DNA of 64,000 bases, from NCBI GenBank assembly GCA_902535365.1, contig CACATF010000001.1, positions 248,765-312,764 of the forward strand. Reading direction: 5' to 3'. A model generated the notes under the pieces. That model saw only the letters and a program-made list of their open reading frames with translations. It searched no databases and had not been told where the DNA came from. The stretch comes from an uncultured SAR86 cluster bacterium (GTDB taxonomy: Bacteria > Pseudomonadota > Gammaproteobacteria > Magnimaribacterales > TMED112). Below, one piece after another: positions 30,014-50,330 of this stretch. Position 1 is the first letter of the stretch, and every line of letters begins with the position of its first letter. Position numbers and translations under genes: made by a program.

Positions 30014-31134
30014 TGTCTTATATTTTTACATCTGAATCAGTATCAGCTGGCCATCCTGATAAAATCTGTGATCAGATTTCCGACGCAATCCTTGATGCTT
30101 GTCTTGGCCAAGATAAAAACTCACGAGTGGCCTGTGAAACCATGGTTAAAAACAATAATGTTATCTTGGGAGGCGAAATTACCACTACTGCTAAAATTAA
30201 TTATGAACAGATTGCCCGCAGTGTGGTGAAAGACATTGGCTACGATCATGAGGCACTCGGTTTCAGTTACGATTCGTTTAATTTTACTAACTATATTTCA
30301 GAACAAAGCCAAGATATTAGGGAAGGGATTACTCAAGGGAACCAGTTGGGATCAGGTGACCAAGGTATTATGTTTGGCTATGCCTGTCGGGAAACTCCAG
30401 AGTTGATGCCATTACCCATTGCTTTAGCTCATAAGCTGACACTCAAACATGAAGATCTGCGACAAGATAGAAGTCTCATGCTTAGACCAGATGCTAAATC
30501 TCAAGTGGCTGTTGAATACAATGATAACTACCAACCACAACGTATTGATTCTATTGTTTTTTCTAGCCAGCACGATCCAGATTTATCCCTAAAACAATTG
30601 CGTGAATTTATACGAGAAGAAATTATTAATAAAACGCTTCCGGAAGATCTTATTGATAACAAAACAAAATTTTTTATAAACCCAGCTGGACGTTTTGAAA
30701 TAGGTGGCCCGGTTGGTGACTGTGGTTTGACTGGTCGCAAAATTATAGTTGATACTTATGGTGGGATGGCGCGCCATGGTGGTGGAGCTTTTTCTGGTAA
30801 AGATCCAACCAAAGTTGATCGATCCGCAGCATATGCCTTAAGGCATGTAGCTAAATCTTTAGTAGCTGCAGATCTTTGTGATTACTGTGAGATTCAAGCA
30901 TCCTATGCTATTGGTATTGCTAAGCCAACTTCAATTTTCATTAATAATTTTGAATCAGAAAAGAAATCAATAACAGAAATTGAGCAAACTGTAATAGAAA
31001 ATTTTGATTTGACACCCTATGGAATTATTCAATCTCTAGCATTATTAACTCCTAATTATAGAAAAACTTCATCATACGGTCATTTTGGCAGGGAAGATCA
31101 GGGGTTTACTTGGGAAAAATCAAAAAAACTTTAA
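30013..31134 (+). CDS. metK: S-adenosylmethionine synthetase
   Basis: [49 protein letters not shown]. Confidence 0.98.
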
Positions 31135-31157
31135 ACTATCCTGTTAAAATAAAACAC

Positions 31158-31934
31158 ATGAAAATTTCAGTAGTTAGTGGCGGTTTTGATCCTATCCATT
31201 CTGGCCACATTAGTTATATTAATGCTGCAAAAAAGTATGGTGAATATTTAATTATTGCTCTTAATAGTGATAAATGGCTTGTAGGAAAAAAAGGCAAAGC
31301 TTTTATGCCATTTGAAGAGCGCAAAGCTATTCTTGAAAATCTAAAGAGTGTAGATGAGGTGATTGATTTTGCTGATGATGGTAAGGGGAGTGCCATGAAT
31401 GCACTTCACAAAGTAAAAGATAAATATCCAGACGCTCAAATTACATTTTGTAATGGGGGCGATCGAGGTAAGGACAACATTCCTGAAATGGAAGTTGAAG
31501 GCATTAATTTTGAGTTTAGTGTTGGTGGTGATGATAAGAAAAACTCAAGCAGTTGGATTCTTAAAGAATGGCAATATGAAAGTGAAGAGAGAATATGGGG
31601 AAAGTTTTATAATCTATTCACTGATAACAAGGTTAAGCTTAAAGAACTGATTATCACTCCCGGCAAAGGCATGAGCTTGCAAAAGCATTTTTATAGAGAT
31701 GAAATATGGTTTATTTCACAAGGGGAATGCGTTGTTAATTTTTCTAAAGAAAGCCCAGAACAAATCAAAGAATTTCATTTGAAGAAACATGATAGTTTTA
31801 GTGTCAAAAAAAATGAATGGCACCAGATTACTAATCCTTTTAATGAAGTATGCAAAATCATTGAAGTTCAGTATGGTGAAAAAACTGACGAGGACGATAT
31901 TGAGAGGCATAGTTATTACAAAAACAATGAGTAA
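31158..31934 (+). CDS. Cytidylyltransferase-like (HxGH) domain fused to a mannose-6-phosphate-isomerase-type cupin
   Basis: [26 protein letters not shown], then R.WG.F, SLQKH..R.E.W, IIEVQYG....EDDIER; ATG 31158 follows TGnTAAAAT. Confidence 0.85.
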
Positions 31935-33285
31935 TTTTACAGATTATAAAGTCAAAGATATCTCTCTTGCAGAGTTTGGCAGACAAGAAATCCTGTTAGC
32001 ACAAGATGAGATGCCTGCACTTATGCAGCTTAGAGAAAAGTACCGAGCTGAGCAGCCTCTAAAAGGTGCAAAAATTATGGGGTGTATTCATATGACCATC
32101 CAAACAGCAGTGTTGATTGAAACCTTGATTGATCTTGGTGCTGAAGTAAGGTGGTCATCCTGCAATATCTTTTCAACTCAAGATCATGCTGCTGCAGCTA
32201 TTGCTGCCAAAGGCATTTCTGTTTTTGCCTGGAAAGGCGAAACAGAAGAGGAATATGAGTGGTGTTTAGATCAAACCATCAATAAAGATGGTAAACCTTG
32301 GGATGCCAACATGATTCTTGACGATGGCGGTGATTTAACCATTAAAGTACATAAAGAATACCCAGATATGCTTGAGCATATTCATGGGATTTCTGAAGAA
32401 ACCACAACTGGCGTTAAACGCCTTAAAGAAATGCTTAATAATGGCGAGCTCAAAGTACCAGCTATTAATGTGAATGACTCTATTACTAAATCAAAAAATG
32501 ATAATAAGTACGGATGCCGACACGGACTTGATGATGCAATTAAACGTGGTACAGATATGCTACTTTCAGGCAAGAAAGCTTTAGTAATTGGTTATGGGGA
32601 TGTTGGTAAGGGCTCAGCAGATTCATTAATGCAGCAAAAAATGATTGTGGACGTAACAGAAGTAGATCCAATCTGTGCTATGCAAGCCTGTTTTGATGGA
32701 TATTCAGTCGTTTCAGCTTACAAAGATGGAGATGTGGATGATAAAGGCAACAATATAGACTCAGAACTTCTTAAAAAATACGATCTTGTTGTCACAACTA
32801 CAGGAAATGTAGATGTTTTAGATAAGTTTATGCTTGATGCGCTTCGATCTGGATGTGTAGTCTGTAATATTGGTCACTTTGATAACGAAATTGACATCAA
32901 ATACCTAAGAACCTTTGATTGGTATGAAGTGAAACCTGGTGTTCACAAAGTTATTAAACCAAATGGAGATTATTTAATACTTTTGGGCGAGGGCCGTTTG
33001 GTTAATTTAGCCTTAGCAACAGGCCACCCAAGTAGAGTTATGGATGGTTCTTTCTGTAATCAGGTTTTAGCTCAAATTATGTTATTTAAAGATGGGTTCG
33101 CTAATAAACCAGAAGCTTACAAGAAACTTTATGTAAAAGTCTTGCCAAAAAAATTAGACGAAGAAGTGGCAACTCTAATGGTTAAGGGCTTTGGTGGAAC
33201 GCTAACCAAACTTACAAAACAACAGCAAGACTATATATCTGTTGAAGAAGATGGCCCATTCAAAGGTGATTCTTATAGCTATTAG
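31927..33285 (+). CDS. ahcY: Adenosylhomocysteinase
   Basis: [60 protein letters not shown]; true start ATG 31927. Confidence 0.97.
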
Positions 33286-33382: not shown

Positions 33383-34327
33383 ATGAGAATTTTTGTTACA
33401 GGTTCTTCAGGTTTCATTGGTTTTCATTTAGTTAAAAAGTTACTAAATGATGGTCATAGTGTTGTTGGGATAGATGATCACAACGACTATTACAATCCAG
33501 CGTTAAAATTCAAAAGACTTTCTCTTCTAAATTCAAATAACTTTACATTTTATGAAACTGACATAAAAAGCCTCAATATAAAGGAATCTAATTTTGATTT
33601 AGCAATTAATTTAGCCGCCCAAGCCGGGGTTAGAGCACCACAAGAAAAACAACACCTATACAAACATTCAAATATTGATGGTTTTAAATCCTTTTGTAAT
33701 TTTTGCAAAAAAAATAATATAAAAAAGATCTTATATGCATCCAGCAGTTCAGTATATTCAGAGATTAAAGAAGGGAAATTTTGTGAGGCAACAACTCCAC
33801 TCAAACCTAAATCAAAATATGGTGAATCAAAACTTTCAAATGAAATTTATGCCTCTAATTTTATTAAATCATACGATGCATCAATCATAGGTCTAAGGTT
33901 TTTTTCTGTTTATGGGCCATTTGGTAGACCTGACATGGCGTATTATGCTTTTTCCAAAGCAATAAAAGACAAAGAAATAATTAATCTTAATAATAACGGC
34001 AACATGTACAGAGATATGACTTTCATAGATGATATTATTGACGGAATATTTGGAGCAATTGATTACGTTTATAGTGTTCAAAATAAAAATGAAATCTTTA
34101 ATTTAGGCAATGACAAACCAATTAAGACAAGTGACTTATTGAATAGAATTGAACAAATAATTGGCAAAAAAGCTTTAATTAAGCCTAATAAGACAGAAAA
34201 CGAAGCATTTAAAACGCACGCTGATATTACTAAAGCAAAAAATTTATTAGGATATGACCCTAAAGTTTGTTTTGATGTAGGTATTGAAAGGTTTCTAGAT
34301 TGGCATAGGCATTATGAGAATATATAA
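33383..34327 (+). CDS. NAD-dependent epimerase (UDP-glucuronate 4-epimerase-like)
   Basis: VTGSSGFIGFH, NLAAQAGVR, YASSSSVY, YGESK, RFFSVYGPFGRPDMAY; start corrected to ATG 33383 after the tRNA. Confidence 0.9.
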   Translation: MRIFVTGSSGFIGFHLVKKLLNDGHSVVGIDDHNDYYNPALKFKRLSLLNSNNFTFYETDIKSLNIKESNFDLAINLAAQAGVRAPQEKQHLYKHSNIDGFKSFCNFCKKNNIKKILYASSSSVYSEIKEGKFCEATTPLKPKSKYGESKLSNEIYASNFIKSYDASIIGLRFFSVYGPFGRPDMAYYAFSKAIKDKEIINLNNNGNMYRDMTFIDDIIDGIFGAIDYVYSVQNKNEIFNLGNDKPIKTSDLLNRIEQIIGKKALIKPNKTENEAFKTHADITKAKNLLGYDPKVCFDVGIERFLDWHRHYENI

Positions 34328-35177
34328 AAAATTAAAATTAGGAATAGTTGGCCATGGTTTTGTAGGGAAGGCTACAGATTGGGGATTTAATAAACGAATA
34401 AGTAAATTTATTGTGGATCCTTTGCTAGATACTAGTGTTAGTGATTTAAAAGATTTTGAACCAGAAATAGTATTTATATGTGTGCCAACACCCATGGGCG
34501 CTGATGGCAGTCAAGATTCATCAATTATTGAAAAGGTAATTAGAGAACTGATCCTGTATTGTCCAAATGCTATCAAGGTTGTAAAAAGCACAGTTTTGCC
34601 GTCTCTTCTAGGTAAGTTGCATAAATTAGATTCAAAACTAATTTATAACCCAGAATTTTTAAGAGAAAAACATGCGAACATCGATTTTATAAACTCTGAT
34701 ATGATTATTTTTGGTGGTGACAGAAATATTTCATCGCAAGTTTCAAATGCATACTTAAGACACTCAAGATGTAAAACAAAAGAGCATATTTTTACTGATC
34801 TTAAGACAGCATCTCTGATTAAGTATTCCATCAATACTTTCTTAGCTTCAAAGGTGATATTTTTTAATGAGCTACATTCAATTTATGAAAAACTTGATGT
34901 AAAAGATAGTTGGGAATCAGTTGTTAATATAATTTCTCGTGATAATAGAGTAGGTGATAGTCATATGGATGTCCCTGGTCATGATGGTAGGAAAGGTTTT
35001 GGTGGTGCATGTTTCCCAAAAGATAGCTTAGCTTTAATTAAATTTGCTGAAAGCATGAATGTTGATTTAAATTCATTAATAGCGACTGTAAAGATAAATA
35101 ATAAAATTAGATCAGAATATGAGGAATTAGATTCAAGAGAATCAGAGCAAAATGTATCATTCGATGATAAAATTTGA
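34314..35177 (+). CDS. UDP-glucose/GDP-mannose dehydrogenase family protein (short, no C-terminal domain)
   Basis: GIVGHGFVG, CVPTP, KSTVLP, NPEFLRE, GFGGACFPKD; 287 aa. Confidence 0.88.
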   Translation: MRIYKKLKLGIVGHGFVGKATDWGFNKRISKFIVDPLLDTSVSDLKDFEPEIVFICVPTPMGADGSQDSSIIEKVIRELILYCPNAIKVVKSTVLPSLLGKLHKLDSKLIYNPEFLREKHANIDFINSDMIIFGGDRNISSQVSNAYLRHSRCKTKEHIFTDLKTASLIKYSINTFLASKVIFFNELHSIYEKLDVKDSWESVVNIISRDNRVGDSHMDVPGHDGRKGFGGACFPKDSLALIKFAESMNVDLNSLIATVKINNKIRSEYEELDSRESEQNVSFDDKI

Positions 35178-35184
35178 CGCTATT

Positions 35185-35271
35185 GCCCAGGTGGTGAAAT
35201 TGGTAGACACAAGGGACTTAAAATCCCTCGAAGGAAACTTCGTGCCGGTTCAAGTCCGGCCCTGGGCACCA
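35185..35271 (+). tRNA. tRNA-Leu (TAA)
   Basis: GCCCAGG/CCTGGGC acceptor stem, AGGGA-CTTAAAA-TCCCT anticodon arm, long variable arm, GGTTCAAGTCC, CCA end. Confidence 0.96.
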
Positions 35272-35275
35272 TGAT

Positions 35276-35752
35276 ATGAGAAAACAGCAAAATTTAGTTA
35301 AATTACAAAGAATAGCTCATATGTTTTATAAAATTAGATATTTGCGCTTCATTGCAAGATTAATCGAAATTTTTATAAGGATAATTTTTTCAGCAAGAAT
35401 ACCTGCAAAAATTGATTTGCCGAAAACAACCTTTTTTGCCCATAGTGCTCTAGGTGTAGTTATTAATGATAATTGTGAAATAAGAGATAATGTTTATATT
35501 GGAACTCATGTTGTAATTGGAGGTAACTCAAAAAGCATTGATGTTCCAATAATCAAGAGCAACTCAATAATTCATACTGGCTCAAATATCCTTGGACCTA
35601 TAACTATTGGTGAGGGTTCGGTAATTGCTCCAAATTCAGTAGTTACTAATAATGTTGCGGCCAGTTGTCTAATGGCTGGTTCCCCAGCAATTATAAAAAA
35701 AGAAAACATTAAATATGAGGACTACAGCCCATTTAGACAAATTGAGATTTAA
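35276..35752 (+). CDS. Serine-acetyltransferase-like hexapeptide-repeat (LbH) acetyltransferase
   Basis: HSALGVVI, P.I.....I..GS.ILGPITIG.GS.IA.NSVV..NV......AGSPA. Confidence 0.85.
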   Translation: MRKQQNLVKLQRIAHMFYKIRYLRFIARLIEIFIRIIFSARIPAKIDLPKTTFFAHSALGVVINDNCEIRDNVYIGTHVVIGGNSKSIDVPIIKSNSIIHTGSNILGPITIGEGSVIAPNSVVTNNVAASCLMAGSPAIIKKENIKYEDYSPFRQIEI

Positions 35753-35758
35753 ATTTGT

Positions 35759-36952
35759 ATGAATGTTAGTTTCAAGTTAAAGTGCTTCATAATCAAAATC
35801 CTTAGTAATTCAGAAAGCATTGAGGATATAAGTTCATTCTCCAAACAAGAAATTAAAGACTTAATTAAAATCATTGTATTCAACAGGCTGGAAAGCTATT
35901 TTTATAATTATCTGAGTATTACTGAGGCTTGTAAAAATTCAATCTTAATAAAAAAAGAAATAAAAAAACCCCTTTTCAAAAGAAATATATGTACATTTAA
36001 AACCCTTGGTGCATCTATAGGTATTTATAAACAGCTTAATAATGAAGGTATCAATTTTAGAATATTGAAGGGAGCATATTTGATAAATAAATTTAATTTA
36101 AAGCACAGGCAAATTAGAGATTTAGATATCTTGGTTGATCCTTCAGATTTAGAGCAAACAATTTCTTGTGCAAAAAAAGCTGGGTATTATTTTTATGAAA
36201 AACAATCAAAGGATGAATACCTTGATTTAGACCATAGGTATGCTTTACCTATGATGATTGATAAAGAAAACAACATTTTGGAAATTCACCATAGAATTAC
36301 AGATCCTAAGATATTTCAAAAATGCAGCATTTCTGAACTAATTATGAAGGATCGAGAATGCCTTAGATTTAAAGATTATGAAATTCAGCATTCATCAATA
36401 GAGGCAAATTTTTGTCATATTCTATACCATGGCATCGGTAAGCAATTTATGGATTGCGGACCACAGTTTATAAATGATTTGATTCTACTATCTGGAGGCA
36501 TCAATGATGGCGGTAAAAAACTTCAAAAGTTCATTCATCATGCAAAATTAGAAAAAGAGTTTTCATTGTTTGGTGCAATCTTGCAAAGATTTTCTGGATT
36601 AAAAATGGATTTGTATATGTCTCAATCAAATGTGCCAAAGCAAATCCTTGATGATGCCGCAAGTTTACTTATTTATAACGACTATAATCATAAAATGCTT
36701 GACTTATTTTTAAATAGATCAAACAAAGGCATCATTTTTCAAACTGCTCAAAAAATTTTCTCCAAATCATCAACCCAATCTCGTTATATGGTTAAATTAG
36801 ATAAAAGAAATTATTTTAGCTTTACAATCAAAAGGGTATTAGAACAAATAAAACACTATTCAATACCTTTTTTAAGATTATTTATGATGAATTTAACAAC
36901 CAACAAAATAAAAAAATATTCTCTAATTAAACATTTTTTAAATAATGATTGA
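35759..36952 (+). CDS. Nucleotidyltransferase family protein (NTP_transf_5 type, lasso-cluster associated)
   Basis: ILKGAYL...R.IRDLDILV...LEIH pattern of the uncharacterised nucleotidyltransferase family. Confidence 0.8.
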   Translation: MNVSFKLKCFIIKILSNSESIEDISSFSKQEIKDLIKIIVFNRLESYFYNYLSITEACKNSILIKKEIKKPLFKRNICTFKTLGASIGIYKQLNNEGINFRILKGAYLINKFNLKHRQIRDLDILVDPSDLEQTISCAKKAGYYFYEKQSKDEYLDLDHRYALPMMIDKENNILEIHHRITDPKIFQKCSISELIMKDRECLRFKDYEIQHSSIEANFCHILYHGIGKQFMDCGPQFINDLILLSGGINDGGKKLQKFIHHAKLEKEFSLFGAILQRFSGLKMDLYMSQSNVPKQILDDAASLLIYNDYNHKMLDLFLNRSNKGIIFQTAQKIFSKSSTQSRYMVKLDKRNYFSFTIKRVLEQIKHYSIPFLRLFMMNLTTNKIKKYSLIKHFLNND

Positions 36953-37595
36953 ACTAGTTAATGTAAAAAAAAGTTTTGTAGATTTTAAGCTAAAAAATAT
37001 TCTCATTGCACCAAAACAAAGAACCATACTTTCAAATATCAGTATAAAAATTGAAAACAATAAAGCTTATATTTTGCAAGGTAAAAATGGATCTGGCAAA
37101 ACCACTCTTCTCAAATTAATAGCTGGTTTATTAAAGCCTGATGATGGAACTATTGAAACAGATAAAGATTATATATCTTCATATGTTTCTACTTCTGAAC
37201 GTAGTTTTTTTTGGAGATTAACAGTTCTTGAAAACTTAATTTTTTTTAACAACCTAAATAAAAATGAAAACGTACAAAAAGAAATTATTTATGAACATTT
37301 AAACAAATATGGGTTGTCAAAATATTCAAATATTGAATTTATGAAATTGTCATCTGGCCAAAAAAGAAAAGTTTCAATCATAAGAGCATTGCTAAAAGAT
37401 CCAGATTTATATTTATTTGATGAAGTCTCAAATTCGCTCGATAAAGAATCAAAAGAAGACCTTATGCAATTTGTTAATGAAGCTTTAATTATTAATCAAA
37501 AGAAAACAATAATTTGGGCCACACACGACTCCCAAGAAGAAAAAATAATTAATGGTGAAATTATCAAAATAAAGAAGGGATTTATACAACAATGA
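36945..37595 (+). CDS. ABC transporter ATP-binding protein
   Basis: Walker A GKNGSGKTT, signature LSSGQKRK, Walker B LYLFDE, ERSFFWRLTV.ENL.FF. Confidence 0.93.
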   Translation: MIELVNVKKSFVDFKLKNILIAPKQRTILSNISIKIENNKAYILQGKNGSGKTTLLKLIAGLLKPDDGTIETDKDYISSYVSTSERSFFWRLTVLENLIFFNNLNKNENVQKEIIYEHLNKYGLSKYSNIEFMKLSSGQKRKVSIIRALLKDPDLYLFDEVSNSLDKESKEDLMQFVNEALIINQKKTIIWATHDSQEEKIINGEIIKIKKGFIQQ

Positions 37596-38428
37596 AGCTA
37601 GATATTAAAAGAGAGACAAATGAGTTATTTGCATTTCTTAAAAAAGACATGCTTATTTCAATAAGTTATAAAGCAAATATATTAAATTTTATTATATTTA
37701 GTATTTTTATAATAAGTTTTATTTCTTTTTTTTCATCGGGTATTGAAACCTTGATTCCTTTTGAAACTTCAAACCAAAAAATAAGTATTTTTGGTTTCTT
37801 CTTAAGTGGAGCAATTATAGTTGAAACCTCACTCAGGTTAGTGAGCAGCATGACAGCTACAGTCCGTTTTTATCAAATGAGTGGAATAGTGGAAGAAATA
37901 TTTTCTGAGAAAGATAGAAATGTGAGAAGAATCATTTATTCATCAACTTATAGTTCTTTGATAGCTCTCTCAAGAGTTATTTTTTATCTTTTGCTTGCAA
38001 TTTTTATTGAAAAAGAGCTTTTTTCAAGTTTGGATCTTTACTCTTTATTAGCTAGCTGCTTATTTATAGTTGTTACATATTTTGGGCTAACTGGTATAGG
38101 CCTTATTGCTTGTAGTTATACAATATTATTCAAGCAAGGTAATTTAGTAATAACTATGTTCTTGATCGTCTCATTATTCTTTTCAAATAGTTTTTTTCTT
38201 GTTGATCAACTCCCGCCACAAATACAATTTGTTAGATACTTAAGCCCAATTTCATACCTACTTGATTATTTTAGAGATATAGATAAATTTGTTAGTATTC
38301 CGGCTAATTTCAATGAAATATTTTTTCAAATCTTATTCATGAATATGATTTATTTTATTTTTGGAGTTATTAGTGTTAAAAAGGCAATTAATATTGCAAA
38401 AGTAAGAGGCAACTTAATTTTTTATTAA
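37592..38428 (+). CDS. ABC-2 type exporter permease
   Basis: About six TM segments, LP...Q....LSPISY..D..R C-terminal ABC-2 pattern; overlaps the ATPase gene. Confidence 0.8.
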   Translation: MKLDIKRETNELFAFLKKDMLISISYKANILNFIIFSIFIISFISFFSSGIETLIPFETSNQKISIFGFFLSGAIIVETSLRLVSSMTATVRFYQMSGIVEEIFSEKDRNVRRIIYSSTYSSLIALSRVIFYLLLAIFIEKELFSSLDLYSLLASCLFIVVTYFGLTGIGLIACSYTILFKQGNLVITMFLIVSLFFSNSFFLVDQLPPQIQFVRYLSPISYLLDYFRDIDKFVSIPANFNEIFFQILFMNMIYFIFGVISVKKAINIAKVRGNLIFY

Positions 38429-38434
38429 TACATT

Positions 38435-38695
38435 ATGAAATATAAAATATCTCCACAAATATTAATGACCAGTATGGATGGTGAGTCTATTATTTTAAAT
38501 CGAGATACTGGGCAATATATAGCGCTAAATATTACAGCATCAACAATTTTTGAATGTATAAATGATGGCGTATCTGAGACCGCGTTATTAGAAAAATTAA
38601 AAAAAATATTTAAAGTTTCTAATAGCGATATCGAACAAGATACAAAAAACTTCCTAAAAGAATGTATCGAAAAAAAGATAGTATTTGTTGAATGA
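38435..38695 (+). CDS. PqqD-family RiPP recognition element (lasso B1)
   Basis: 86 aa: DGESIILN..TGQY.ALN.TA..IFE......L...L...F.V.......D...FL; adjacent to B2 and C genes. Confidence 0.9.
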   Translation: MKYKISPQILMTSMDGESIILNRDTGQYIALNITASTIFECINDGVSETALLEKLKKIFKVSNSDIEQDTKNFLKECIEKKIVFVE

Positions 38696-39069
38696 ATGTA
38701 TTTTTAATTAAAATACAAATTTTTTTATATATTATTCTTACATCAATTTTTTTACGCATTCTCAGTTACCAACAATTAAATAAATTTATCAAAGGAAGTC
38801 CTTTTTTTATGAGTAGATCCAACCTATGTCAAAATGAATACTCAAAAATAGTTGAAAGACTTTCAAAAAAAATTAATGTAAACAAATGCTTTGTTAAGAG
38901 CATTGTTCTTTTTAAAGCACTAAAAAAAAATGGTTTTTGTCCACGTCTTATTGTTGGTGGCAGGTTTGTTGATTCAATTTACCATTCGCACTCATGGGTT
39001 GAACTGAAAGAGCAAAACTTGATATATCAAAACAAAGATGATTTTAAAGAAGTAATCAGATATACATGA
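38692..39069 (+). CDS. Lasso peptide leader peptidase B2 (transglutaminase-like)
   Basis: KCFVKSIVL (catalytic Cys), L.VG and HSHSWVE (HAWVE-type His motif); 125 aa. Confidence 0.9.
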   Translation: MNVFLIKIQIFLYIILTSIFLRILSYQQLNKFIKGSPFFMSRSNLCQNEYSKIVERLSKKINVNKCFVKSIVLFKALKKNGFCPRLIVGGRFVDSIYHSHSWVELKEQNLIYQNKDDFKEVIRYT

Positions 39070-40988
39070 ACACCTTTTTCTTACATAGATCAAAAAATAG
39101 CCATCCGAATAAAGAAAGTTTTGATATTGAGCAGAAAAAAATCTTTGCTTATAGGGAGTATGATGAATTCTTCTCGTTTACACACAAAAAAACTTATGCA
39201 TCATCATTTAAAAATTTAACAAAGAATAATGACAAAAAAAGATCAATTAATCAGATCTATAAGAGTGAAAATCTCATAGTTTTTTGCGATGCAGTTATAG
39301 AAAATTTAGATTTTATACTTGAACTTTTAAAGATTGATAAGTTGCTATCAAATGAAGAAATCTTTTTTTTGTTGTATAAAAAATATGACCAAGATTTTAT
39401 AAAATATATTAAGGGTTCGTTTAATTTTCTAATAGCTGATCTCAAAAAAGATGAATATATTTTTGGGTCTGACAGGTTTTGCACTAAACCATTATTTTTC
39501 TCAGTTCAAAATAATAATTTTTTTATTTCAACAGAAATTAAATCTTTCAAAAACCTAAGTATTTTTAATAAGTCACTTAATTATAAGACACTCTACAACC
39601 AGCTAGTGGTATCATTTCAAAAGCCAGGGGAAACCTATTTCAAAGATATTTCTAAAGTTGAAAAAGCAACAGTATATGTATATAAAGATGGATTATTAAA
39701 TTCAAAAAAATACTACAAGCTTTCCTCCTTGGGAAAAACACAATTACCCTACAAGCAAACAATTGATAAAACTAGGGAATTATTTTTAAAAAGTGTCAAA
39801 GCAAATTGTTACAGCAATACAAATGTAATTTCATCTATCACTAGTGGTGGCCTAGACTCATCGTCAATTACTGCTGCGTTATCTTATATTGACAGCAAAG
39901 AAATTAATTCTTATTCGGTAAACTTCTCAGGCATTAGTAAGGAGGACTTTTTAAAAAGTGATGAAAGAAAATACATAAATGAAATAGCAAAATTTAAAAA
40001 TGTATATCATGAATTTTGTATTGCACATGAGGATGGTCCTTTTAGCTTTCAAGAGAGATTTGATCATGATCTTGACCAGCCACTTTTAAACGGCAATTAT
40101 TTTTTTACAGATTATATTTACCCTAAGGTCCGCCAAAATGGTGGAAGAATATTACTTGAAGGAATAGATGGAGACACTGTCCTCTCATATGGATTTGGTC
40201 ATTTGATCGAATTGGGTAGAAGATTAGAATTTTTTTCGGCATTCAAAAATTATCAAAAACTTTGCAAAGGAAGAAAAAGAAAGCCTACTGTATATGACTT
40301 TTTAAAAAGCATAATTATAAAGCCAAATTTGCCTAGAAATGTAAATCAATTTCTAAGAAAAATTTTTGGGAAAGATACTTGGGAAGAAAGAAACCTTAAA
40401 AGGCTAAAAAAATCATATCATCCAAAAAATTTACAATCATTAATTGACCATACATATGGTTATAAAAGAGGAATATTTATAAATTCTCAACAAAATCATT
40501 TAAACGAGATTAATTCAAATATATGGGAATATATATTTTCATTCTCGTATGAAATTGCATGCTCATATGGTATTGAAGTAAGATTACCTTATTTCAATCA
40601 AGATTTAATTGAGCTTTCATTATCCCTTCCTTCAAATCTAAAATTTTCAGATGGTGTTGATAGGTATATTTTTAGAGAAGCGATGAAAGGTATTGTGCCT
40701 TTAAGTATTTTGAAAAAAACATCGAAGGCAGATTTAAGCTCATTAGGCAGAAATGATTTAAGAAAACATTCTAAAACCCTAATGAATTATTTTTCGAGCA
40801 ACTCTTATAAATTATATGGTGTAGTAGATAAAATATATATTGATAAATGCCTAAAATTTTTAACAAATGACAAGAATGGACATTTATATACATCTGTTTT
40901 GGCAGATCTTTATGCAATTGAAAAGTGGCTTTCCAAAGAGGGTTTTGATATTGATATAGAAGAATTTTCAAAGTGCTCAAAAATATGA
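39066..40988 (+). CDS. Lasso peptide cyclase C (asparagine synthetase-like)
   Basis: DRF..KPLF, SGGLDSS, G.DGD, EVRLPYF..DLIE, RYIFREAMKGIVP; no N-terminal Cys of a glutaminase-active AsnB; flanked by B1, B2 and precursor. Confidence 0.9.
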   Translation: MNTFFLHRSKNSHPNKESFDIEQKKIFAYREYDEFFSFTHKKTYASSFKNLTKNNDKKRSINQIYKSENLIVFCDAVIENLDFILELLKIDKLLSNEEIFFLLYKKYDQDFIKYIKGSFNFLIADLKKDEYIFGSDRFCTKPLFFSVQNNNFFISTEIKSFKNLSIFNKSLNYKTLYNQLVVSFQKPGETYFKDISKVEKATVYVYKDGLLNSKKYYKLSSLGKTQLPYKQTIDKTRELFLKSVKANCYSNTNVISSITSGGLDSSSITAALSYIDSKEINSYSVNFSGISKEDFLKSDERKYINEIAKFKNVYHEFCIAHEDGPFSFQERFDHDLDQPLLNGNYFFTDYIYPKVRQNGGRILLEGIDGDTVLSYGFGHLIELGRRLEFFSAFKNYQKLCKGRKRKPTVYDFLKSIIIKPNLPRNVNQFLRKIFGKDTWEERNLKRLKKSYHPKNLQSLIDHTYGYKRGIFINSQQNHLNEINSNIWEYIFSFSYEIACSYGIEVRLPYFNQDLIELSLSLPSNLKFSDGVDRYIFREAMKGIVPLSILKKTSKADLSSLGRNDLRKHSKTLMNYFSSNSYKLYGVVDKIYIDKCLKFLTNDKNGHLYTSVLADLYAIEKWLSKEGFDIDIEEFSKCSKI

Positions 40989-40995
40989 GTTTTTC

Positions 40996-41031
40996 TTGCA
41001 CTTTTCTTAAATTGCTGTAACATTTGACAAT
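40996..41031 (+). promoter_or_regulatory. Putative sigma70 promoter for the precursor gene
   Basis: TTGCAC (40996-41001), 16 nt spacer, TAACAT (41018-41023), 8 nt before ATG 41032. Confidence 0.4.
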
Positions 41032-41172
41032 ATGAAATGGGAAAAACCAGAAATTAGTTATTTAGGAAGTCTGCAAGAGCTCACAAACATGCCATCTGGC
41101 GAGGGCGACACAAAAGACTTCGGATTCAATGATGGAGAAGTATTTTCAGGTAATCCTATTGGTTCAACATAA
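41032..41172 (+). CDS. Lasso peptide precursor A (46 aa), not in ORF track
   Basis: MKWEKPEISYLGSLQELTN-MPSGEGDTKDFGFNDGEVFSGNPIGST: WxxP RRE-binding motif, LG, Thr at -2, Gly/Asp-rich core; fills the gap between cyclase and kinase. Confidence 0.9.
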   Translation: MKWEKPEISYLGSLQELTNMPSGEGDTKDFGFNDGEVFSGNPIGST

Positions 41173-42060
41173 TTGCTAAACCATCATTATAGGCACCTCG
41201 GTTTAAAAATAACCTCAGATTCAAAGCTTCTTTTTCTTGAAGAAGGCAATCATTGTAGTTCAGGTGCTCAAATCATCATATTAAATAAGGAAAATCTTAA
41301 AAGTAAAAGAAAAAACAATACATCTACGTGGGTATTCACTGCAAATCACAAAAAGATAGAAATTTACAAGAAGGGCATATGCTTTATAGAAATAATTAAT
41401 GGCAGGGAGATCCACTACAAAAAATTAGGCAAATTTAATAATATTGATTTTTCTAAATTTATAGCAAATTTAGTTTTTGGCTATCTTCTTTTTCAAAGAA
41501 AAGAAATTGTACTGCATGCATCATGTGTTTCTAAAAATGGAAAAGCAATATTATTTTGTGGTCCTAGTGGAAGTGGAAAGTCAACTTTGGCTGCCCAACT
41601 TTTGTCAAAATTCAGTTTTATGTCTGAAGACTTATCATATTTAATAAAAAAGAAGAACCAAATTTATGTATCATCTTCTATCCCGTTCATAAAATTGGAC
41701 CCTAAAATCTCTAGCTTCATAGAATGTCAAAATAAGTATATTTTGCAGAGCGATCAGTATAAAAGAGATTTTTGTGAAGTTTCTAGCCATCATTCAAAAA
41801 ATACTGCAGAAGTAAATAAAATTATTTTCTTAAAATGGGGAACAAAAGACAAATTTTATAAACCGTCAATTAAGGAAGCTTTAATACTCTTCATTAATAA
41901 TACATTTAAAAAAATTCCCTATTCCCCAAGTTCTGAACATTCCATAAAAATATTTCACTTCTTCAAAAAACTGAATGAATCATCTGAACTTTATGTTCTA
42001 ATGCGAAAAAAGGAAGAAAAAATAGCAAATGGAAATGATTTTTTTGATACAATGATTTAA
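41173..42060 (+). CDS. HPr-kinase-like protein (putative lasso peptide kinase)
   Basis: VLHASCV..NGKAILFCGPSGSGKSTLA......FMSED; TTG directly after the precursor stop. Confidence 0.85.
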   Translation: MLNHHYRHLGLKITSDSKLLFLEEGNHCSSGAQIIILNKENLKSKRKNNTSTWVFTANHKKIEIYKKGICFIEIINGREIHYKKLGKFNNIDFSKFIANLVFGYLLFQRKEIVLHASCVSKNGKAILFCGPSGSGKSTLAAQLLSKFSFMSEDLSYLIKKKNQIYVSSSIPFIKLDPKISSFIECQNKYILQSDQYKRDFCEVSSHHSKNTAEVNKIIFLKWGTKDKFYKPSIKEALILFINNTFKKIPYSPSSEHSIKIFHFFKKLNESSELYVLMRKKEEKIANGNDFFDTMI

Positions 42061-45414: not shown

Positions 45415-46659
45415 GTGAATATTGGAGTTGTTGGATTAGGTTATGTAGGCATTGTGTCTTTAGCTTGTTTGTCAAAAATGGGGTTTAAGGTAACAGGAAT
45501 TGATACTGATCAAAAAAAAGTTGATGCATTGAAAAATGGATGCTCGTATATTTATGAACCAGGGGTAGATAAGCTAATTAAAGATGGATTAAAAAAGGGC
45601 AAAATTTTTTCATCAAATAAAATTAATAGTTCGATAAATGATTTAGATTTATTCTTAGTTTGTGTTGGCACGCCAAGCAAAGCAGATGGCTCCCATGATT
45701 ACTCTTACATTGAAAATGTAACAAAAGAAATTGCAATTTGCTCCAAAAAACTCAAACATAAAAAAGTTACAGTTGCGTTTCGATCAACATTTCAACCAGG
45801 TACGATTGATAAAGTAATATTGCCAATTCTTGATAAGTATAAGGCCACAAATGTTGATGTTGTTTATAATCCAGAATTTTTAAGGGAATCCACTGCGATT
45901 GATGATTTTTTTATGCCCTCCAGGATTGTTGTAGGAACATCTGATGGTTCAGCATCAAAACATATGAATCAAATATATAAATCATTTGATGCAAAAATAT
46001 TTCTTACAAAATTCAAGGAAGCAGAAATAACTAAACTTATTGATAACACTTGGCATGCGCTTAAAGTTTCATTTATGAATGAAATTGCTCGAATCTCAGA
46101 AACCAATGAAATTAATATATCCAAGATATATGATATTTTTGTTGCAGATAATATTTTGAATATTTCAAAACATTATTTGAGGCCTGGAGGTCCGTTTGGG
46201 GGCTCTTGTTTGCCAAAAGATCTCAGGGCATTAGAGTCTCTTTCAAAGCTTCATAAATTAAATAACCCAATTATAGAAAACATATCTTTATCAAATGCCA
46301 ACCATCAGGAATATTTAGTGAATAAAATTTTACATAGAACTGGTAAAAATAAAAAAATACTTTTTTGCGGTGTTACGTTCAAAAGAAATACTGATGATCT
46401 CAGAGAAAGCCCATGGTTATCAATTGCTAACGTTCTAAAAGAACAAAATTTAGACTTTGATATTTATGATTCATATTATTCATCGAATAAAACCAACAAA
46501 GAAAAAAATACTTTTCTCGGTCCAATAAGTGAGAATATCGTATCTATTAATGATGTAAGAAACTCAAAATATGATCTTTACATAAATGCAAACAACTCAA
46601 TTGTTGATCTGGGCTTAAAATCAACAAATACTGTATTAGATCTTAATAGATTAGATTAA
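45415..46659 (+). CDS. Nucleotide-sugar dehydrogenase (GDP-mannose/UDP-glucose 6-dehydrogenase family)
   Basis: GLGYVG, CVGTPS, YNPEFLRE, FGGSCLPKD, FK.NTDDLRESP. Confidence 0.92.
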   Translation: MNIGVVGLGYVGIVSLACLSKMGFKVTGIDTDQKKVDALKNGCSYIYEPGVDKLIKDGLKKGKIFSSNKINSSINDLDLFLVCVGTPSKADGSHDYSYIENVTKEIAICSKKLKHKKVTVAFRSTFQPGTIDKVILPILDKYKATNVDVVYNPEFLRESTAIDDFFMPSRIVVGTSDGSASKHMNQIYKSFDAKIFLTKFKEAEITKLIDNTWHALKVSFMNEIARISETNEINISKIYDIFVADNILNISKHYLRPGGPFGGSCLPKDLRALESLSKLHKLNNPIIENISLSNANHQEYLVNKILHRTGKNKKILFCGVTFKRNTDDLRESPWLSIANVLKEQNLDFDIYDSYYSSNKTNKEKNTFLGPISENIVSINDVRNSKYDLYINANNSIVDLGLKSTNTVLDLNRLD

Positions 46660-47860: not shown

Positions 47861-49074
47861 ATATAGCTAATTCAGCAATTAGCTTAACATTGGCAAAAAT
47901 TATTGGCATTGGGTGTCAATTCATCTCAATATCTATAATCACTAAAAATTTATCTTTAGATAATGTAGGAACCTTCCTCCTTTTCTTAACATTCACTTTA
48001 TTAGCAAGGTTTTTATCAAGTTTTGGGTTTGATCAAATATTAATTCGGGAAATATCTAGAGAAAAAGAAAACAAAAAATCCTTTGGCAATACCTTTATTG
48101 TTTCACTAATATTCAATTGTTTGATTTCATCAATAATCTATTTGATTTATATAAATTTCTTCGATTTTAGCCTTCAAATAAATAACTTATTAATATTTTT
48201 GAGTTTTATTATGCAAGGAATTTTTGGCTCTTGTATTGGTTTGATAAGAGGGTTTGGAAAAAATCTAAAGGCACAAATTCCTGAAGGGTTGTTAATGCAT
48301 TTATTTTTTCTGGTTTTAATAATTATTCATAGCAACATAGAAATAATCAGTCTAAAAACATTATTTTTAAATTATTTTTTATCCTCAACAGTTGTATTTT
48401 TAGTTTATTTTTCTTTGATAAAAGATATGAGGTTGAATTTTAAAGGTTCGCTAAAAAAAGATTTTGTAAAGTATTTTAAATCAGCAGGGCAAATTATTAT
48501 TATACTTGCATCCACCTATGCAATTATAAAAAGCCCAACACTAATAGCAGCAATTTTTTTAGATATTCAAGAGGTCGCTTTAATAGACATCGCGTTAAAA
48601 GTAGCAAGTATCCCAATTATTCTAATTTCTAGCATTGGAGCAACTTATGCTGGTGTCTTTTCGAATTTAAAGGGAATGGGTTTTAAATCTAATTTTAATG
48701 CCTTGTCTCAGGCGGTTCTTTTAGGATTTATTCCATCATTGATATGGACAATCTGCTTAGTTTTTTTTGGAAAAGACATTATTAAAATTCTTTTTGGTGA
48801 TCTATATCTAGAGGCGTATCCTAGTTTGATAATTTTATCTATATCATATTTATTAATATCGATAGGATCTGTATCAAGTGTTATGTTAATTCATCAAGAT
48901 AACGAATCAATCCTTTTAAAATTGAGTACTTTTTCAATTCTGGTGTTATCATTTTCAGCGGCATTGTTAGACCTCAATTTAATTAAAATATCTTTGATAT
49001 TTATGATTAGCATCATAATCAGAGATATTGGCAGTTTACTTTATGCCATGAATATACATTTGAGAGCTTCATGA
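47857..49074 (+). CDS. Wzx-like oligosaccharide flippase
   Basis: About 12 TM segments, flippase-like N-terminus (L....VG.F...FG.D..LIRE), ILFG..Y..A; start ATG 47857. Confidence 0.78.
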   Translation: MNIANSAISLTLAKIIGIGCQFISISIITKNLSLDNVGTFLLFLTFTLLARFLSSFGFDQILIREISREKENKKSFGNTFIVSLIFNCLISSIIYLIYINFFDFSLQINNLLIFLSFIMQGIFGSCIGLIRGFGKNLKAQIPEGLLMHLFFLVLIIIHSNIEIISLKTLFLNYFLSSTVVFLVYFSLIKDMRLNFKGSLKKDFVKYFKSAGQIIIILASTYAIIKSPTLIAAIFLDIQEVALIDIALKVASIPIILISSIGATYAGVFSNLKGMGFKSNFNALSQAVLLGFIPSLIWTICLVFFGKDIIKILFGDLYLEAYPSLIILSISYLLISIGSVSSVMLIHQDNESILLKLSTFSILVLSFSAALLDLNLIKISLIFMISIIIRDIGSLLYAMNIHLRAS

Positions 49075-50330
49075 TTAAAAGTTTTGATTTAAAAAATATT
49101 CTCTTTACTTACTTTTTAGGCATATTTATTTTTGGGGCATTAAATAAAATCTTCACAGCACAAAACTCAAGTTATTTTGATGAAATTTTTATTCTTATTG
49201 TGGTCCCTTTTGCCCTCTATTTTTTAATACGTAATATTTTTAATTTTAAACTAGCAATAATATTCCTAATACTTCATATAGCAGTGTATTTAATTTCATC
49301 CTTGCAAACTATTTACGATGGTAGAATTACCGCTCAACTTACATTATTAAGCCTTTTCCTTGAGTTTAAATACTTCTTATTATTTCTCTTTTTAGCCCTC
49401 TCAATCCAAAAAAGTAAAATCTCTTTTGAATCACTTCATAAGGCATTAAGTAATTTATTTATTTATATAACAATCCTAAATGCTCCATTTGTTTTTTTTG
49501 ATATCCTGATTAGCGATTATTCAATTTTAGGATTTCCATTGCAGTCAAATAACTTCTTAAACATTAATGCTGCACAGGGGCTTTTTGTGCATAAGTTCTA
49601 TCTCGCTTTATGTTCTGTACTTTCAGCAATATTTTGCTGCATAAATTATCTAGTAACAAATTCAAAAAAATATCTCACTCTTTTCCTTCTTAGTTTATTA
49701 ATTCTCTTTTTGTCATATAGTCTCAAAGAGCTAGCAATCGGGCTCTTTTGCCTCGCATTAATTATTTATCAAAAACTAAGGAATCATAGAATCTTTTCAT
49801 TAATCATTTTTGTAGCTACTATTTTAATAATACCTTTAGGCTTAATATTTTTTTTAGGAGAAAGATCATATTACTTTACTGATATTACAGTTCGTGGTCT
49901 CTTTTATTCTTCATCAGTTGATATTGCAAATAACTATTTTCCTTTTGGAGCTGGGACAGGAAAATTTGGAAGCACAGTAGCATCTGATTATGCATACAGT
50001 GAGCTATATTTCCAGTATGGGATTGCATATATATATGGAGGAACAACAACCTATGGACAATATTTGACTGATGTTGGATATGCAAAGTATCTCGGTGAAT
50101 CAGGCTGGATTGGCATTGCTTTTTTATTGTTTGCATTTATAACTCCAATTTTTTCAGCATATGAAAAGTCTCACCTGTTTTCATTGAAGTTTCTTACAAT
50201 ATTGCTTCTTGGGCTCCTTATTATTACCAATAATTTTGCTTCAACTATTCAGAACTCTGATTTTGGTTCCATGCTCGTTGCATTATACTTCGCAATATAT
50301 AGCTCCACATTCCAACCTCATGAAAAATAA
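49071..50330 (+). CDS. Wzy-like polysaccharide polymerase / O-antigen ligase-like membrane protein
   Basis: Polytopic membrane protein with periplasmic loop R..FY.....A..YFPFGAG.G.FGS and LGESGWIG; next to wzx. Confidence 0.72.
   Translation: MIKSFDLKNILFTYFLGIFIFGALNKIFTAQNSSYFDEIFILIVVPFALYFLIRNIFNFKLAIIFLILHIAVYLISSLQTIYDGRITAQLTLLSLFLEFKYFLLFLFLALSIQKSKISFESLHKALSNLFIYITILNAPFVFFDILISDYSILGFPLQSNNFLNINAAQGLFVHKFYLALCSVLSAIFCCINYLVTNSKKYLTLFLLSLLILFLSYSLKELAIGLFCLALIIYQKLRNHRIFSLIIFVATILIIPLGLIFFLGERSYYFTDITVRGLFYSSSVDIANNYFPFGAGTGKFGSTVASDYAYSELYFQYGIAYIYGGTTTYGQYLTDVGYAKYLGESGWIGIAFLLFAFITPIFSAYEKSHLFSLKFLTILLLGLLIITNNFASTIQNSDFGSMLVALYFAIYSSTFQPHEK

Follow-up and report, generated by a model that had tools for sequence, protein, structure and literature searches.

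A probable kinase- and nucleotidyltransferase-tailored lasso-type peptide cassette in a SAR86 genome

The cassette and its relatives

The window analysed here, a stretch of 64,000 nucleotides from contig CACATF010000001.1 of an uncultured SAR86 cluster bacterium (GenBank assembly GCA_902535365.1), carries at positions 35759–42060 a cassette of eight + strand open reading frames (ORFs) spanning 6.3 kb. We consider it very probable that this is an intact, operon-like cassette for a tailored lasso-type ribosomal peptide, of the class that combines a peptide kinase (K) with a nucleotidyltransferase (N). The genes are arranged in the order N-D1-D2-B1-B2-C-A-K, and adjacent ones either overlap by 4–8 nt or are separated by gaps of 6–43 nt, a spacing typical of operons. 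A reading of the letters alone (hereinafter the sequence-only reading) had proposed eight contiguous same-strand genes, and all of these ORFs were recovered where it had placed them, as follows:

35759–36952, + strand: N, a PsmN/BsfN-like nucleotidyltransferase, 397 aa (PF14907 73.3 bits, cut-off 31.2)
36945–37595, + strand: ATP-binding cassette (ABC) transporter ATPase, exporter subunit, 216 aa (ABC_tran PF00005 90.7 bits)
37592–38428, + strand: ABC-2 type permease, exporter subunit, 278 aa (ABC2_membrane PF01061 36.5 bits)
38435–38695, + strand: B1, a PqqD-like recognition element of peptides that are made by ribosomes and modified after translation (RiPPs), and putative leader-binding chaperone, 86 aa (PF05402 45.3 bits, cut-off 23.4)
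38692–39069, + strand: B2, a putative transglutaminase-like Cys-His leader peptidase, 125 aa (PF13471 and NF033537, both below cut-off)
39066–40988, + strand: C, a putative asparagine-synthetase-like macrolactam (lasso) cyclase, 640 aa (NF033535 as best family; Asn_synthase 105.5 bits)
41032–41172, + strand: A, the candidate precursor, 46 aa (ORF without family match)
41032–41088, + strand: leader of A, 19 aa, MKWEKPEISYLGSLQELTN, with W(-17), P(-14), I(-12), G(-8) and T(-2)
41089–41172, + strand: predicted core of A, 27 aa, MPSGEGDTKDFGFNDGEVFSGNPIGST, plus the stop codon, placed by the leader register
41173–42060, + strand: K, a putative HPr-kinase-like peptide kinase, 295 aa (conserved motif, profile and fold matches)

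The reading draws on gene content, motifs and comparative pattern, and each catalytic step is modelled on characterised homologues. By this analogy, B1 would bind the 46-aa precursor via its W-x-x-P-x-I leader, and K would phosphorylate a Ser or Thr of the precursor in a leader-dependent manner, the candidates being Ser26/Thr27 at the C-terminus or Ser3. B2, with Cys66 and His100, would then cleave after Thr(-2)-Asn(-1), and C would adenylate an Asp side chain and close an isopeptide ring, canonically from the α-amine of Met1 to Asp7. N would place a further group onto the phosphate (a hexose in pseudomycoidin), and the two-gene ABC-2 exporter would secrete the product, probably serving in self-protection as well.

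Relatives of the cassette were sought in a species set of 266 genomes of the order, many of them incomplete, such that absences are soft. A cyclase search retrieved 18 genomes at E≤1e-20, of which 13 were inspected: in eight, homologues of all the partners were found with blastp and on inspection (the window's genome, G198, G240, G243, G244, G249, G257 and G260), G008 and G125 were also confirmed as clusters, and G022, G139 and G087 have Cys2-bearing AsnB-like genes only. The kinase profile marked 13/266 genomes, namely 8/30 in genus g1 (the window's genome included), 1/50 in f2, 2/139 in f3 and 2/47 in f4, with a match in 1/57 high-quality genomes; hence the cluster type is not unique to the window's genome. 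All 13 loci carry the same partners with a small ORF in the same slot (L026 being cut by a contig end); the five loci beyond the first eight (G214, G008, G238, G125 and G059) each present N, the ABC pair, B1, B2, C, the small ORF and K, with G008 cut by a contig end. As the gene set and the small-ORF slot recur in 12 other genomes, and a profile of the precursor finds 205 proteins (see below), the cassette is more than a chance assemblage.

These relatives are divergent, with cyclases 25–29% identical to that of the window within the same genus. A cyclase of 98% identity occurs on three further contigs, and the 90%-identity cluster has three members; the next-closest cyclases from outside the 266 genomes form a group of 36–38% identity from marine metagenomes. 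A metagenome scan yielded 80 loci, of which L030 alone is close, and a pattern scan of the genome contigs based on the cyclase alignment gave 125 pattern matches and no relative.

Two further genes recur beside some of the related cassettes. A small 2-oxoglutarate-Fe(II) oxygenase (PF13640) abuts the cassette in L018:5010-5561 (G260) and L015:12842-13477 (G198), in different genomic contexts, and may be an extra tailoring enzyme such as a hydroxylase; the window is without one. An Exo_endo_phos gene (PF03372) separates the ABC and nucleotidyltransferase genes or adjoins them in L016:13514-14410, L017:5458-6291 and L018:4128-4943. These three clusters sit at the site flanked by a tail-specific protease gene and a DUF305 gene, and the PF03372 gene could belong to the pathway or to the neighbourhood.

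Putative maturation and tailoring enzymes

The sequence-only reading had rested its lasso assignment on the combination of split B1/B2, C and A, and this is borne out by catalytic residues that are conserved across 12–13 homologous clusters; the matches it had called for to PF05402, PF14907 and Asn_synthase were likewise recovered (scores in the feature list). The best NCBIfam matches of B1 are two lasso PqqD models, at 42 bits (cut-off 80) and 38 bits (cut-off 70). A structure prediction of B1 in complex with the precursor scored 0.41, against 0.02 for the best of three controls, with runs sharing at least 95% of contacts and a partner pLDDT (predicted local distance difference test) of at least 52. 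In calibration, the mark used was reached by 58/80 solved complexes and 2/110 mismatched pairs; among those that reached it, 7 of the 80 solved complexes and both passing mismatches scored 0.60 or below. The prediction thus lends weak support to binding, and the pass may reflect likeness or memory, since complexes of such recognition elements with leaders have already been solved.

For B2, the window's protein scores 23.5 bits with PF13471 (cut-off 26, E 5e-5) and 27 bits with NF033537 (cut-off 33, E 5e-6), and hence falls 2.5 and 6 bits short of the two curated cut-offs, a caveat to its assignment. Its homologues match nothing but these two families in 12/12 cases, with best E values of 4.6e-13 and 1.2e-14. 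The C...HxWVE signature predicted for it is present as C66...H100-S-W-V-E; both catalytic residues and W102 are invariant in 12 sequences, among which the third acidic residue varies. An AlphaFold2 (AF2) model (pLDDT 89.8) has transglutaminase-like Cys proteases as neighbours (3kd4, PeiP, TglA, 3isr and LapG) at Z 5.1–6.4, a range in which chance arrangements occur; Foldseek with the same model gave no match at E≤0.001, and the B2 profile none among solved structures at E≤1.

The lasso cyclase family NF033535 is the best NCBIfam match of C, with 235 bits (cut-off 525), followed by asn_synth_AEB with 160.7, and its PP-loop S260-G-G-L-D-S265 is invariant. As the sequence-only reading had noted, this AsnB-like enzyme is without the N-terminal glutaminase Cys2, beginning instead with MNTFF. 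Cys2 occurs in 0/12 cyclases of the SAR86 clusters, whereas 5/5 AsnB-like genes of other SAR86 polysaccharide loci start with MCG. In a quick IQ-TREE phylogeny of 35 rows, a branch with 100% support separates all 10 Cys2-bearing AsnB-like rows (the five from SAR86 polysaccharide loci among them) from the window's cyclase and the 11 other SAR86 cluster cyclases. By these sequence criteria, the cyclase is distinct from the Cys2-bearing AsnB enzymes of SAR86 polysaccharide loci, and the grouping with capsule-amidating enzymes that would have undermined the lasso assignment was not recovered.

The family scores of K also lie below the cut-offs (PF07475 18.1 bits, TIGR04352 35.5 bits) and centre on the P-loop. 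Eight aligned homologues share invariant H115, S117, G130, G135-K136-S137 and E152-D153. The motif described for lasso kinases, H...G-x2-G-x-G-K-S...D-D (PMC10368454), is present as H115, G130, G133, G135, K136, S137 and E152-D153, where 8/8 aligned sequences have Glu instead of the first Asp, unlike the D-D of the lasso kinases reported in PMC9266682 and PMC10368454. Profile comparison with the PDB found HPr(Ser) kinases as the best matches, with E from 5.6e-5 (3tqf) to 6e-4. Foldseek with an AF2 model (pLDDT 80.3) retrieved phosphoenolpyruvate carboxykinases (PEPCK; E 1.8e-7, query TM-score (TMq) 0.54–0.60) and HPr kinase/phosphorylases (HPrK/P; E 2.4e-6), two families with a common fold; among its Atlas neighbours, 11–18% of members carry PF07475. 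Both profile and modelled fold thus match an HPrK/PEPCK-type kinase. One caveat to the analogy with kinases that act on a C-terminal Ser is that the precursor ends in Ser-Thr.

N has eight residues that are invariant in 13 homologues: K104, G105, R117, D121, D123, H177, H224 and D240. Its D121-x-D123 corresponds in kind to the D134/D136 pair of PsmN, the D-x-D double mutant of which is inactive (PMC6993621); a comparison of the N profile with the PDB gave no meaningful match. As for the exporter, an ABC ATPase homologue adjoins the lasso genes in 11/12 other loci (L026 being cut by the contig end), and the ABC-2 permease is found together with the ATPase in related loci.

The precursor family and the closure of the ring

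The leader of the window's precursor has W3-x-x-P6-x-I8 and T18 at the distances -17 to -12 and -2, which correspond to the published rule for B1 recognition, YxxPxL at -17 to -12 with Thr at -2; leaders with Ile/Val(-2) accompany kinase-associated lasso clusters (PMC10368454). An ORF of 42–50 aa lies between C and K in every locus. We built a profile from the 13 genomic precursors and searched it against 5.8 billion proteins, recovering 205 small proteins at E≤10, the best 120 of which have E≤2e-10. The leader motif is kept in 13/13 genomic homologues and in 120/120 among the matches listed. The sequence-only reading had forecast that automatic annotation would call such a cassette asparagine synthase plus hypotheticals and miss the precursor: indeed, some sources name distant cyclase homologues 'asparagine synthase (glutamine-hydrolysing)', but a few precursor homologues are carried in some sources as 'hypothetical protein'.

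Pooling the best 120 of the 205 database matches with the 13 genomic precursors gave 95 distinct cores, which are related to each other, so that the counts below represent non-independent trials. The leader register is kept in 95/95, with W (61) or Y (34) at -17, P at -14 and I/V/L at -12; the residue at -2 is I in 88, V in 5, M in 1 and T in 1, the window's precursor being the sole one with Thr, the classical residue. Judged by these positions, the family follows the published B1-recognition register in its Ile/Val(-2) kinase variant. The leaders are conserved while the cores are hypervariable. Predicted cleavage after Thr18-Asn19 would release the 27-aa core of the window, which offers Met1/Asp7 or Lys9/Asp15 as candidate ring residues and, with its C-terminal end Ser26-Thr27, the candidate phosphosites Ser3, Ser26 and Thr27; 93/95 cores have Ser or Thr within the last three residues. 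The calculated monoisotopic mass of the window's core is 2761.181 in linear form and 2743.171 after one dehydration, rising to 2823.137 with a phosphate and to 2985.190 with a hexose in addition. Its closest relative is the precursor of the metagenome contig L030, with the core ANEQGDTKDLGAFDGERFAGQNIGS.

The cores fall into two classes, one short (38 distinct) and one long (57 distinct, the window's included), and the corresponding cyclases form separate clades with 97% (long) and 93% (short) support. Short cores have the form x5-G-x-G-D9 in 38/38, and a 9-residue ring fits all 38, Asp9 being the sole possible acceptor in several; unusually, position 1 holds Asp, Asn, Ser or Ala, and Lys occurs in positions 1–9 of 1/38. 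Long cores have 5–9 residues followed by a Lys and then, six residues on (seven in one subclass), by the Asp of a G-x-x-D motif; this K-x2-G-x2/3-D block is present in 57/57.

Several observations weigh against the cassette being a functional lasso pathway of the known kind. A scan for promoters and terminators found nothing above shuffles, with 36 promoter-like sites where 42.9 were expected and 0 terminators where 2.2 were. A look-up of RNA sequencing runs gave none that covers the stretch, and the two runs displayed share next to none of its words. The window's B1 (with the NCBIfam lasso models), B2, cyclase and kinase score below the curated NCBIfam cut-offs, and B2 also below that of Pfam, although their family assignments are supported by the conserved residues and the well-scoring homologues. 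The window's precursor is without the terminal Ser of paeninodin-type substrates, and its Met at core position 1 is the single case among the 95 distinct cores; to our knowledge, Met is not a usual lasso N-terminus. An Asp or Glu at positions 7–9, the canonical acceptor, occurs in 13/57 long cores and is missing from 44/57. The window's Asp7 satisfies the letter of this rule, but in L030 the G-D-T-K-D block lies one residue nearer the cleavage site, with Asp6 and Asp9 in place of the window's Asp7 and Asp10, such that the two have no conserved Asp in common at positions 7–9. Finally, the authors of the Bradymonas study never detected the mature lasso (PMC10368454), and the kinase/nucleotidyltransferase class with Ile(-2) is accordingly still without a solved product.

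The acceptor pattern leads to the best-surviving alternative, in which the product is a lasso-type RiPP but the ring of the long class departs from the canonical lactam between the N-terminus and Asp/Glu(7–9). One option is a ring from the Lys9 side chain to Asp15 with a free N-terminal stub; others are a 6-residue ring, a ring of 12–17 residues or a shifted cleavage site. We regard this alternative as unlikely on the whole, although the ring chemistry of the long class may be non-canonical given that 44/57 cores have no acid at 7–9 while K-x2-G-x2/3-D is fixed in 57/57 behind a variable segment. Further points on this side are that short cores place the same G-x-G-D motif at Asp9, and that the Lys-to-Asp spacing of i+6 is identical in the window and L030 in spite of their one-residue offset. 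Likewise, the G243 cluster is intact, with a 582-aa cyclase free of internal stops, and its core has acids at 3, 11 and 17 only; the kinase-linked precursors of other metagenome loci (two in L031, and those of L032 and L037) have K at i and D at i+6 and no acid at 7–9.

Three accounts of the ring remain. A canonical ring from the N-terminus to the first acid would span 7 residues for the window's peptide and 6 for two large subclasses, and a 6-residue lasso ring is below any ring size known to us. Alternatively, the cleavage site is moved by one residue in some subclasses; such a shift would give Asp7 in classes 2 and 3. In the third, the ring is closed by the Lys side chain on the invariant Asp: the constant Lys-to-Asp spacing beside a variable N-terminal segment argues for this, and by atom count the Lys-Asp(i+6) ring consists of 26 atoms, as many as a lasso ring of 8 residues closed on Glu. 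On the other hand, the conserved Cys/His of B2 and the near-invariant Gly1 of the long classes argue for the newly freed α-amine as nucleophile, and the window itself has a usable Asp7. We know of no lasso cyclase that uses a Lys side chain, and a full-text search for one returned general reviews only. Moreover, the sequences are kin, and the counts overstate their independence; the K-type peptides described so far are canonical, with Ala1-Glu9 in pseudomycoidin (PMC6993621) and a predicted Gly1-Asp8 in BsfA (PMC10368454).

The most specific form of this alternative, to which we accord a slightly smaller chance than to a non-canonical ring in general, holds that the long-core peptides are non-classical, the cyclase joining the side-chain amine of the conserved Lys to the invariant Asp that lies six, or rarely seven, residues downstream. 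The product would then be a lasso-sized 26-atom ring with both an N-terminal and a C-terminal tail, on which the phospho-glycosyl group installed by K and N would act as a plug. If true, this would amount to a new macrocyclisation chemistry for the enzyme family and a new peptide topology, in one of the surface ocean's most abundant bacteria.

Genomic setting, role and known counterparts

The source genome (927,839 bases in 16 contigs, completeness 86.6%) is, by its GyrA (window 14230–16767), a TMED112-like member of SAR86, since this protein shares 92% identity with one recorded as Gammaproteobacteria bacterium TMED112 and 90% with one recorded as SAR86 cluster bacterium; the sequence-only reading had recognised the genome as SAR86-like. 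TMED112 is one of four families that GTDB distinguishes within SAR86 (PMC11582366).

Over about 34–56 kb of the window, the GC content drops to 26–31% from the 34–38% of the flanks. The cassette, with 26–29%, lies inside this stretch, and the low GC extends over all 22 kb of the island, not just over the cassette. Family matches identify the stretch as a surface-polysaccharide locus bounded by metK/ahcY and pyruvate dehydrogenase. Its first part runs from an epimerase through a short UDP-glucose dehydrogenase (UGDH)-like gene, a tRNA-Leu and a hexapeptide acetyltransferase to the cassette, which is followed by Wzc, Wza, Wzb, UGDH, glycosyltransferases, a flippase, a heparinase II/III-like gene, an initiating sugar transferase and YjbH. 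The feature that anchors the island lies outside the cassette and serves as context:

35185–35271, + strand: tRNA-Leu(taa), found by ARAGORN and Rfam, a conserved anchor before the strain-variable low-GC island

In four cassette-free genomes of the same genus (G245, G247, G255 and G251), the anchor of ahcY, tRNA-Cys, short UGDH and tRNA-Leu is kept, with unrelated genes 3′ of it; the cassette is therefore, as far as gene order tells, cargo of a strain-variable low-GC island downstream of tRNA-Leu. Its relatives occupy six or more insertion points: after tRNA-Leu in the window, between ahcY and the epimerase in G244, between metK and the manC-like gene in G249 and on the metagenome contig L030, beside the manC-like gene in G198, beside wzc/wza in G214, and in G243, G257, G260 and G240 between a DUF305 gene and one for a tail-specific protease.

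This setting bears on the remaining alternatives. Reading the cassette as a horizontally transferred relic, now inactive and no longer yielding a product, would agree with its GC below that of the flanks, with the scores below curated cut-offs and with Met1 and Thr(-2), which make the window's precursor an outlier among the 95 cores. Nonetheless, all eight frames are open, with lengths as in the homologues and catalytic residues retained, a 98%-identical cyclase is present on three further contigs (and the 90%-identity cluster has its three members), and the low GC spans the entire island; we accordingly find a relic very improbable. Still less credible is a role in polysaccharide synthesis, in which the AsnB-like enzyme would amidate a sugar acid, the nucleotidyltransferase activate a sugar and the ABC-2 pair export the polymer, the small ORF being fortuitous. 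The cassette does sit in a Wzc/Wza/Wzb locus with glycosyltransferases, ABC-2 transporters and AsnB-like amidotransferases are frequent in such loci, and Cys2-bearing AsnB homologues occur in other SAR86 polysaccharide regions. But the cyclase is without the glutaminase Cys, and a branch with 100% support parts it from the Cys2 enzymes; it is accompanied in 13 loci by PqqD, the Cys-His peptidase, the kinase and a small ORF with a strongly conserved leader; and the four loci at the protease/DUF305 site lie away from polysaccharide genes. An anti-phage defence system can be dismissed almost entirely, even though strain-variable islands of this type often hold defence genes and a nucleotidyltransferase, a kinase and an ATPase are at hand, because PADLOC recognises no signature protein, its models matching none of N, the permease, B1, B2, C and A, the ABC ATPase by generic P-loop similarity only and the kinase in one weak match (17 bits), and all parts have closer counterparts in lasso pathways.

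Several neighbouring genes deserve mention in their own right. The hexapeptide-repeat acetyltransferase at window 35276–35752 (EpsC/CysE-like; NF041874 93 bits, below cut-off) ends 6 nt before the N gene and was considered as a ninth member of the cassette, then rejected, as the other 12 loci contain a single weak serine acetyltransferase (SAT)-like match (L020), some 2.7 kb past the cassette; it is probably island cargo and not a lasso tailoring enzyme. The short UGDH-like gene (window 34314–35177, 287 aa; UDP-glucose/GDP-mannose dehydrogenase-like) comprises part of the N-domain and the central domain, without the C-terminal UDP-binding domain, and stands beside tRNA-Leu in same-genus relatives at 38–86% identity; a full-length UGDH is encoded at window 45415–46659. 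A heparinase II/III-like protein (window 51406–53205; PF07940 153.6 bits, PF16889 41.4 bits) is unusual company for glycosyltransferases and a flippase in a polysaccharide synthesis locus. Between the flippase and a glycosyltransferase, a 419-aa ORF (window 49071–50330) with no Pfam match at E≤1e-5 could, by its position, be a polymerase. The listed start of the AdoHcyase ORF (window 31789–33285) lies about 50 codons 5′ of the family match and overlaps a manC-like gene (31110–31934), and the true start is probably further downstream. In L113 (G251:C2:7000-26999), the region 3′ of tRNA-Leu has about 18 kb without an ORF of at least 160 aa, yet the DNA is coding-like; this gap probably reflects a frameshift-rich assembly rather than biology.

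SAR86 ranks with the surface ocean's most abundant bacterial lineages and has genomes of about 1 Mb, for which a pathway of eight genes and 6.3 kb that makes a secreted, decorated peptide would be a big investment. The most likely role of the predicted lasso-type peptide is antagonism between close relatives: the patchy occurrence of the cassette, its several insertion points and the conjunction of conserved leaders with hypervariable cores are what one would expect from antagonism or recognition at the strain level, a subject hardly explored in streamlined oligotrophs. Sequence comparison places related cassettes with fast-changing peptides across SAR86 genomes and ocean metagenomes. The natural core variants constitute a data set on the tolerance of kinase/nucleotidyltransferase-type lasso enzymes and expose a family-wide departure from the 'Asp/Glu at 7–9' rule. 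Full-text searches found no literature linking SAR86 to lasso peptides, with the limit that subscription papers and supplements were not searchable and that the tables of ocean surveys of biosynthetic gene clusters may list such clusters.

A clade of kinase-tailored lasso clusters with split B proteins has been recognised in Proteobacteria and Bacillota (PMC5067487). Within it, one of the closest known systems is the psm cluster of Bacillus pseudomycoides, for which the link between kinase, nucleotidyltransferase and pseudomycoidin drawn by the sequence-only reading agrees with the published account: PsmK phosphorylates the C-terminal Ser, and PsmN is required for the +162 Da hexose on the phosphate (PMC6993621). 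Like the window, psm has split B1/B2, an Asn-synthetase-like cyclase, an HPr-kinase-like kinase, an ABC exporter and an uncharacterised PF14907-type nucleotidyltransferase with a catalytic D-x-D (PMC6993621). It differs in its host (Bacillota, against Gammaproteobacteria), in its order C-A-K-B1-B2-N-D (against N-D1-D2-B1-B2-C-A-K) and in its exporter, which in the window is a separate ATPase and ABC-2 permease. PsmA ends in Ser and has the ring Ala1-Glu9 (PMC6993621), whereas in the window's peptide the first residue is Met, the candidate acceptor is Asp7 and the end is Ser-Thr.

In Bradymonas sediminis and relatives, the bsf cluster (A, B1, B2, C, D, K and N) is, like the window's, a proteobacterial-type cluster with both K and N; there BsfK phosphorylates Ser3 of the core in a leader- and B1-dependent manner, and the window's core also has a Ser3 (PMC10368454). 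The bsf leader has YxxPxL at -17 to -12 and the Ile/Val(-2) typical of kinase clusters, which 93/95 cores of the SAR86 family share (I or V), unlike the window's own leader with Trp(-17) and Thr(-2); the ring of BsfA is predicted as Gly1-Asp8, and in the account given there the mature Bsf lasso was never observed, such that bsf offers no product precedent (PMC10368454). The paeninodin cluster pade of Paenibacillus dendritiformis (C-A-K-B1-B2-D) is, as in the window, a kinase-tailored split-B pathway, the kinase of which acts on the precursor before maturation (PMC5067487, PMC9266682); it differs in having no nucleotidyltransferase, a C-terminal Ser as phosphosite and a host in the Bacillota. 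Finally, glutamine-dependent AsnB-like amidotransferases of polysaccharide loci (e.g., of the TIGR03108 type) resemble the window's cyclase in their Asn_synthase and glutamine amidotransferase (GATase)-like domains and their location in polysaccharide islands, but keep the Cys2 that the SAR86 cluster cyclases are without. From gene content and motifs, the cassette belongs to the known kinase-plus-nucleotidyltransferase lasso class of pseudomycoidin and Bradymonas bsf, within which it is set apart by its gene order, the two-gene ABC-2 exporter, Trp(-17), the Glu-Asp of its kinase (against D-D in the lasso kinases of PMC9266682 and PMC10368454) and the anomalies of its predicted core.

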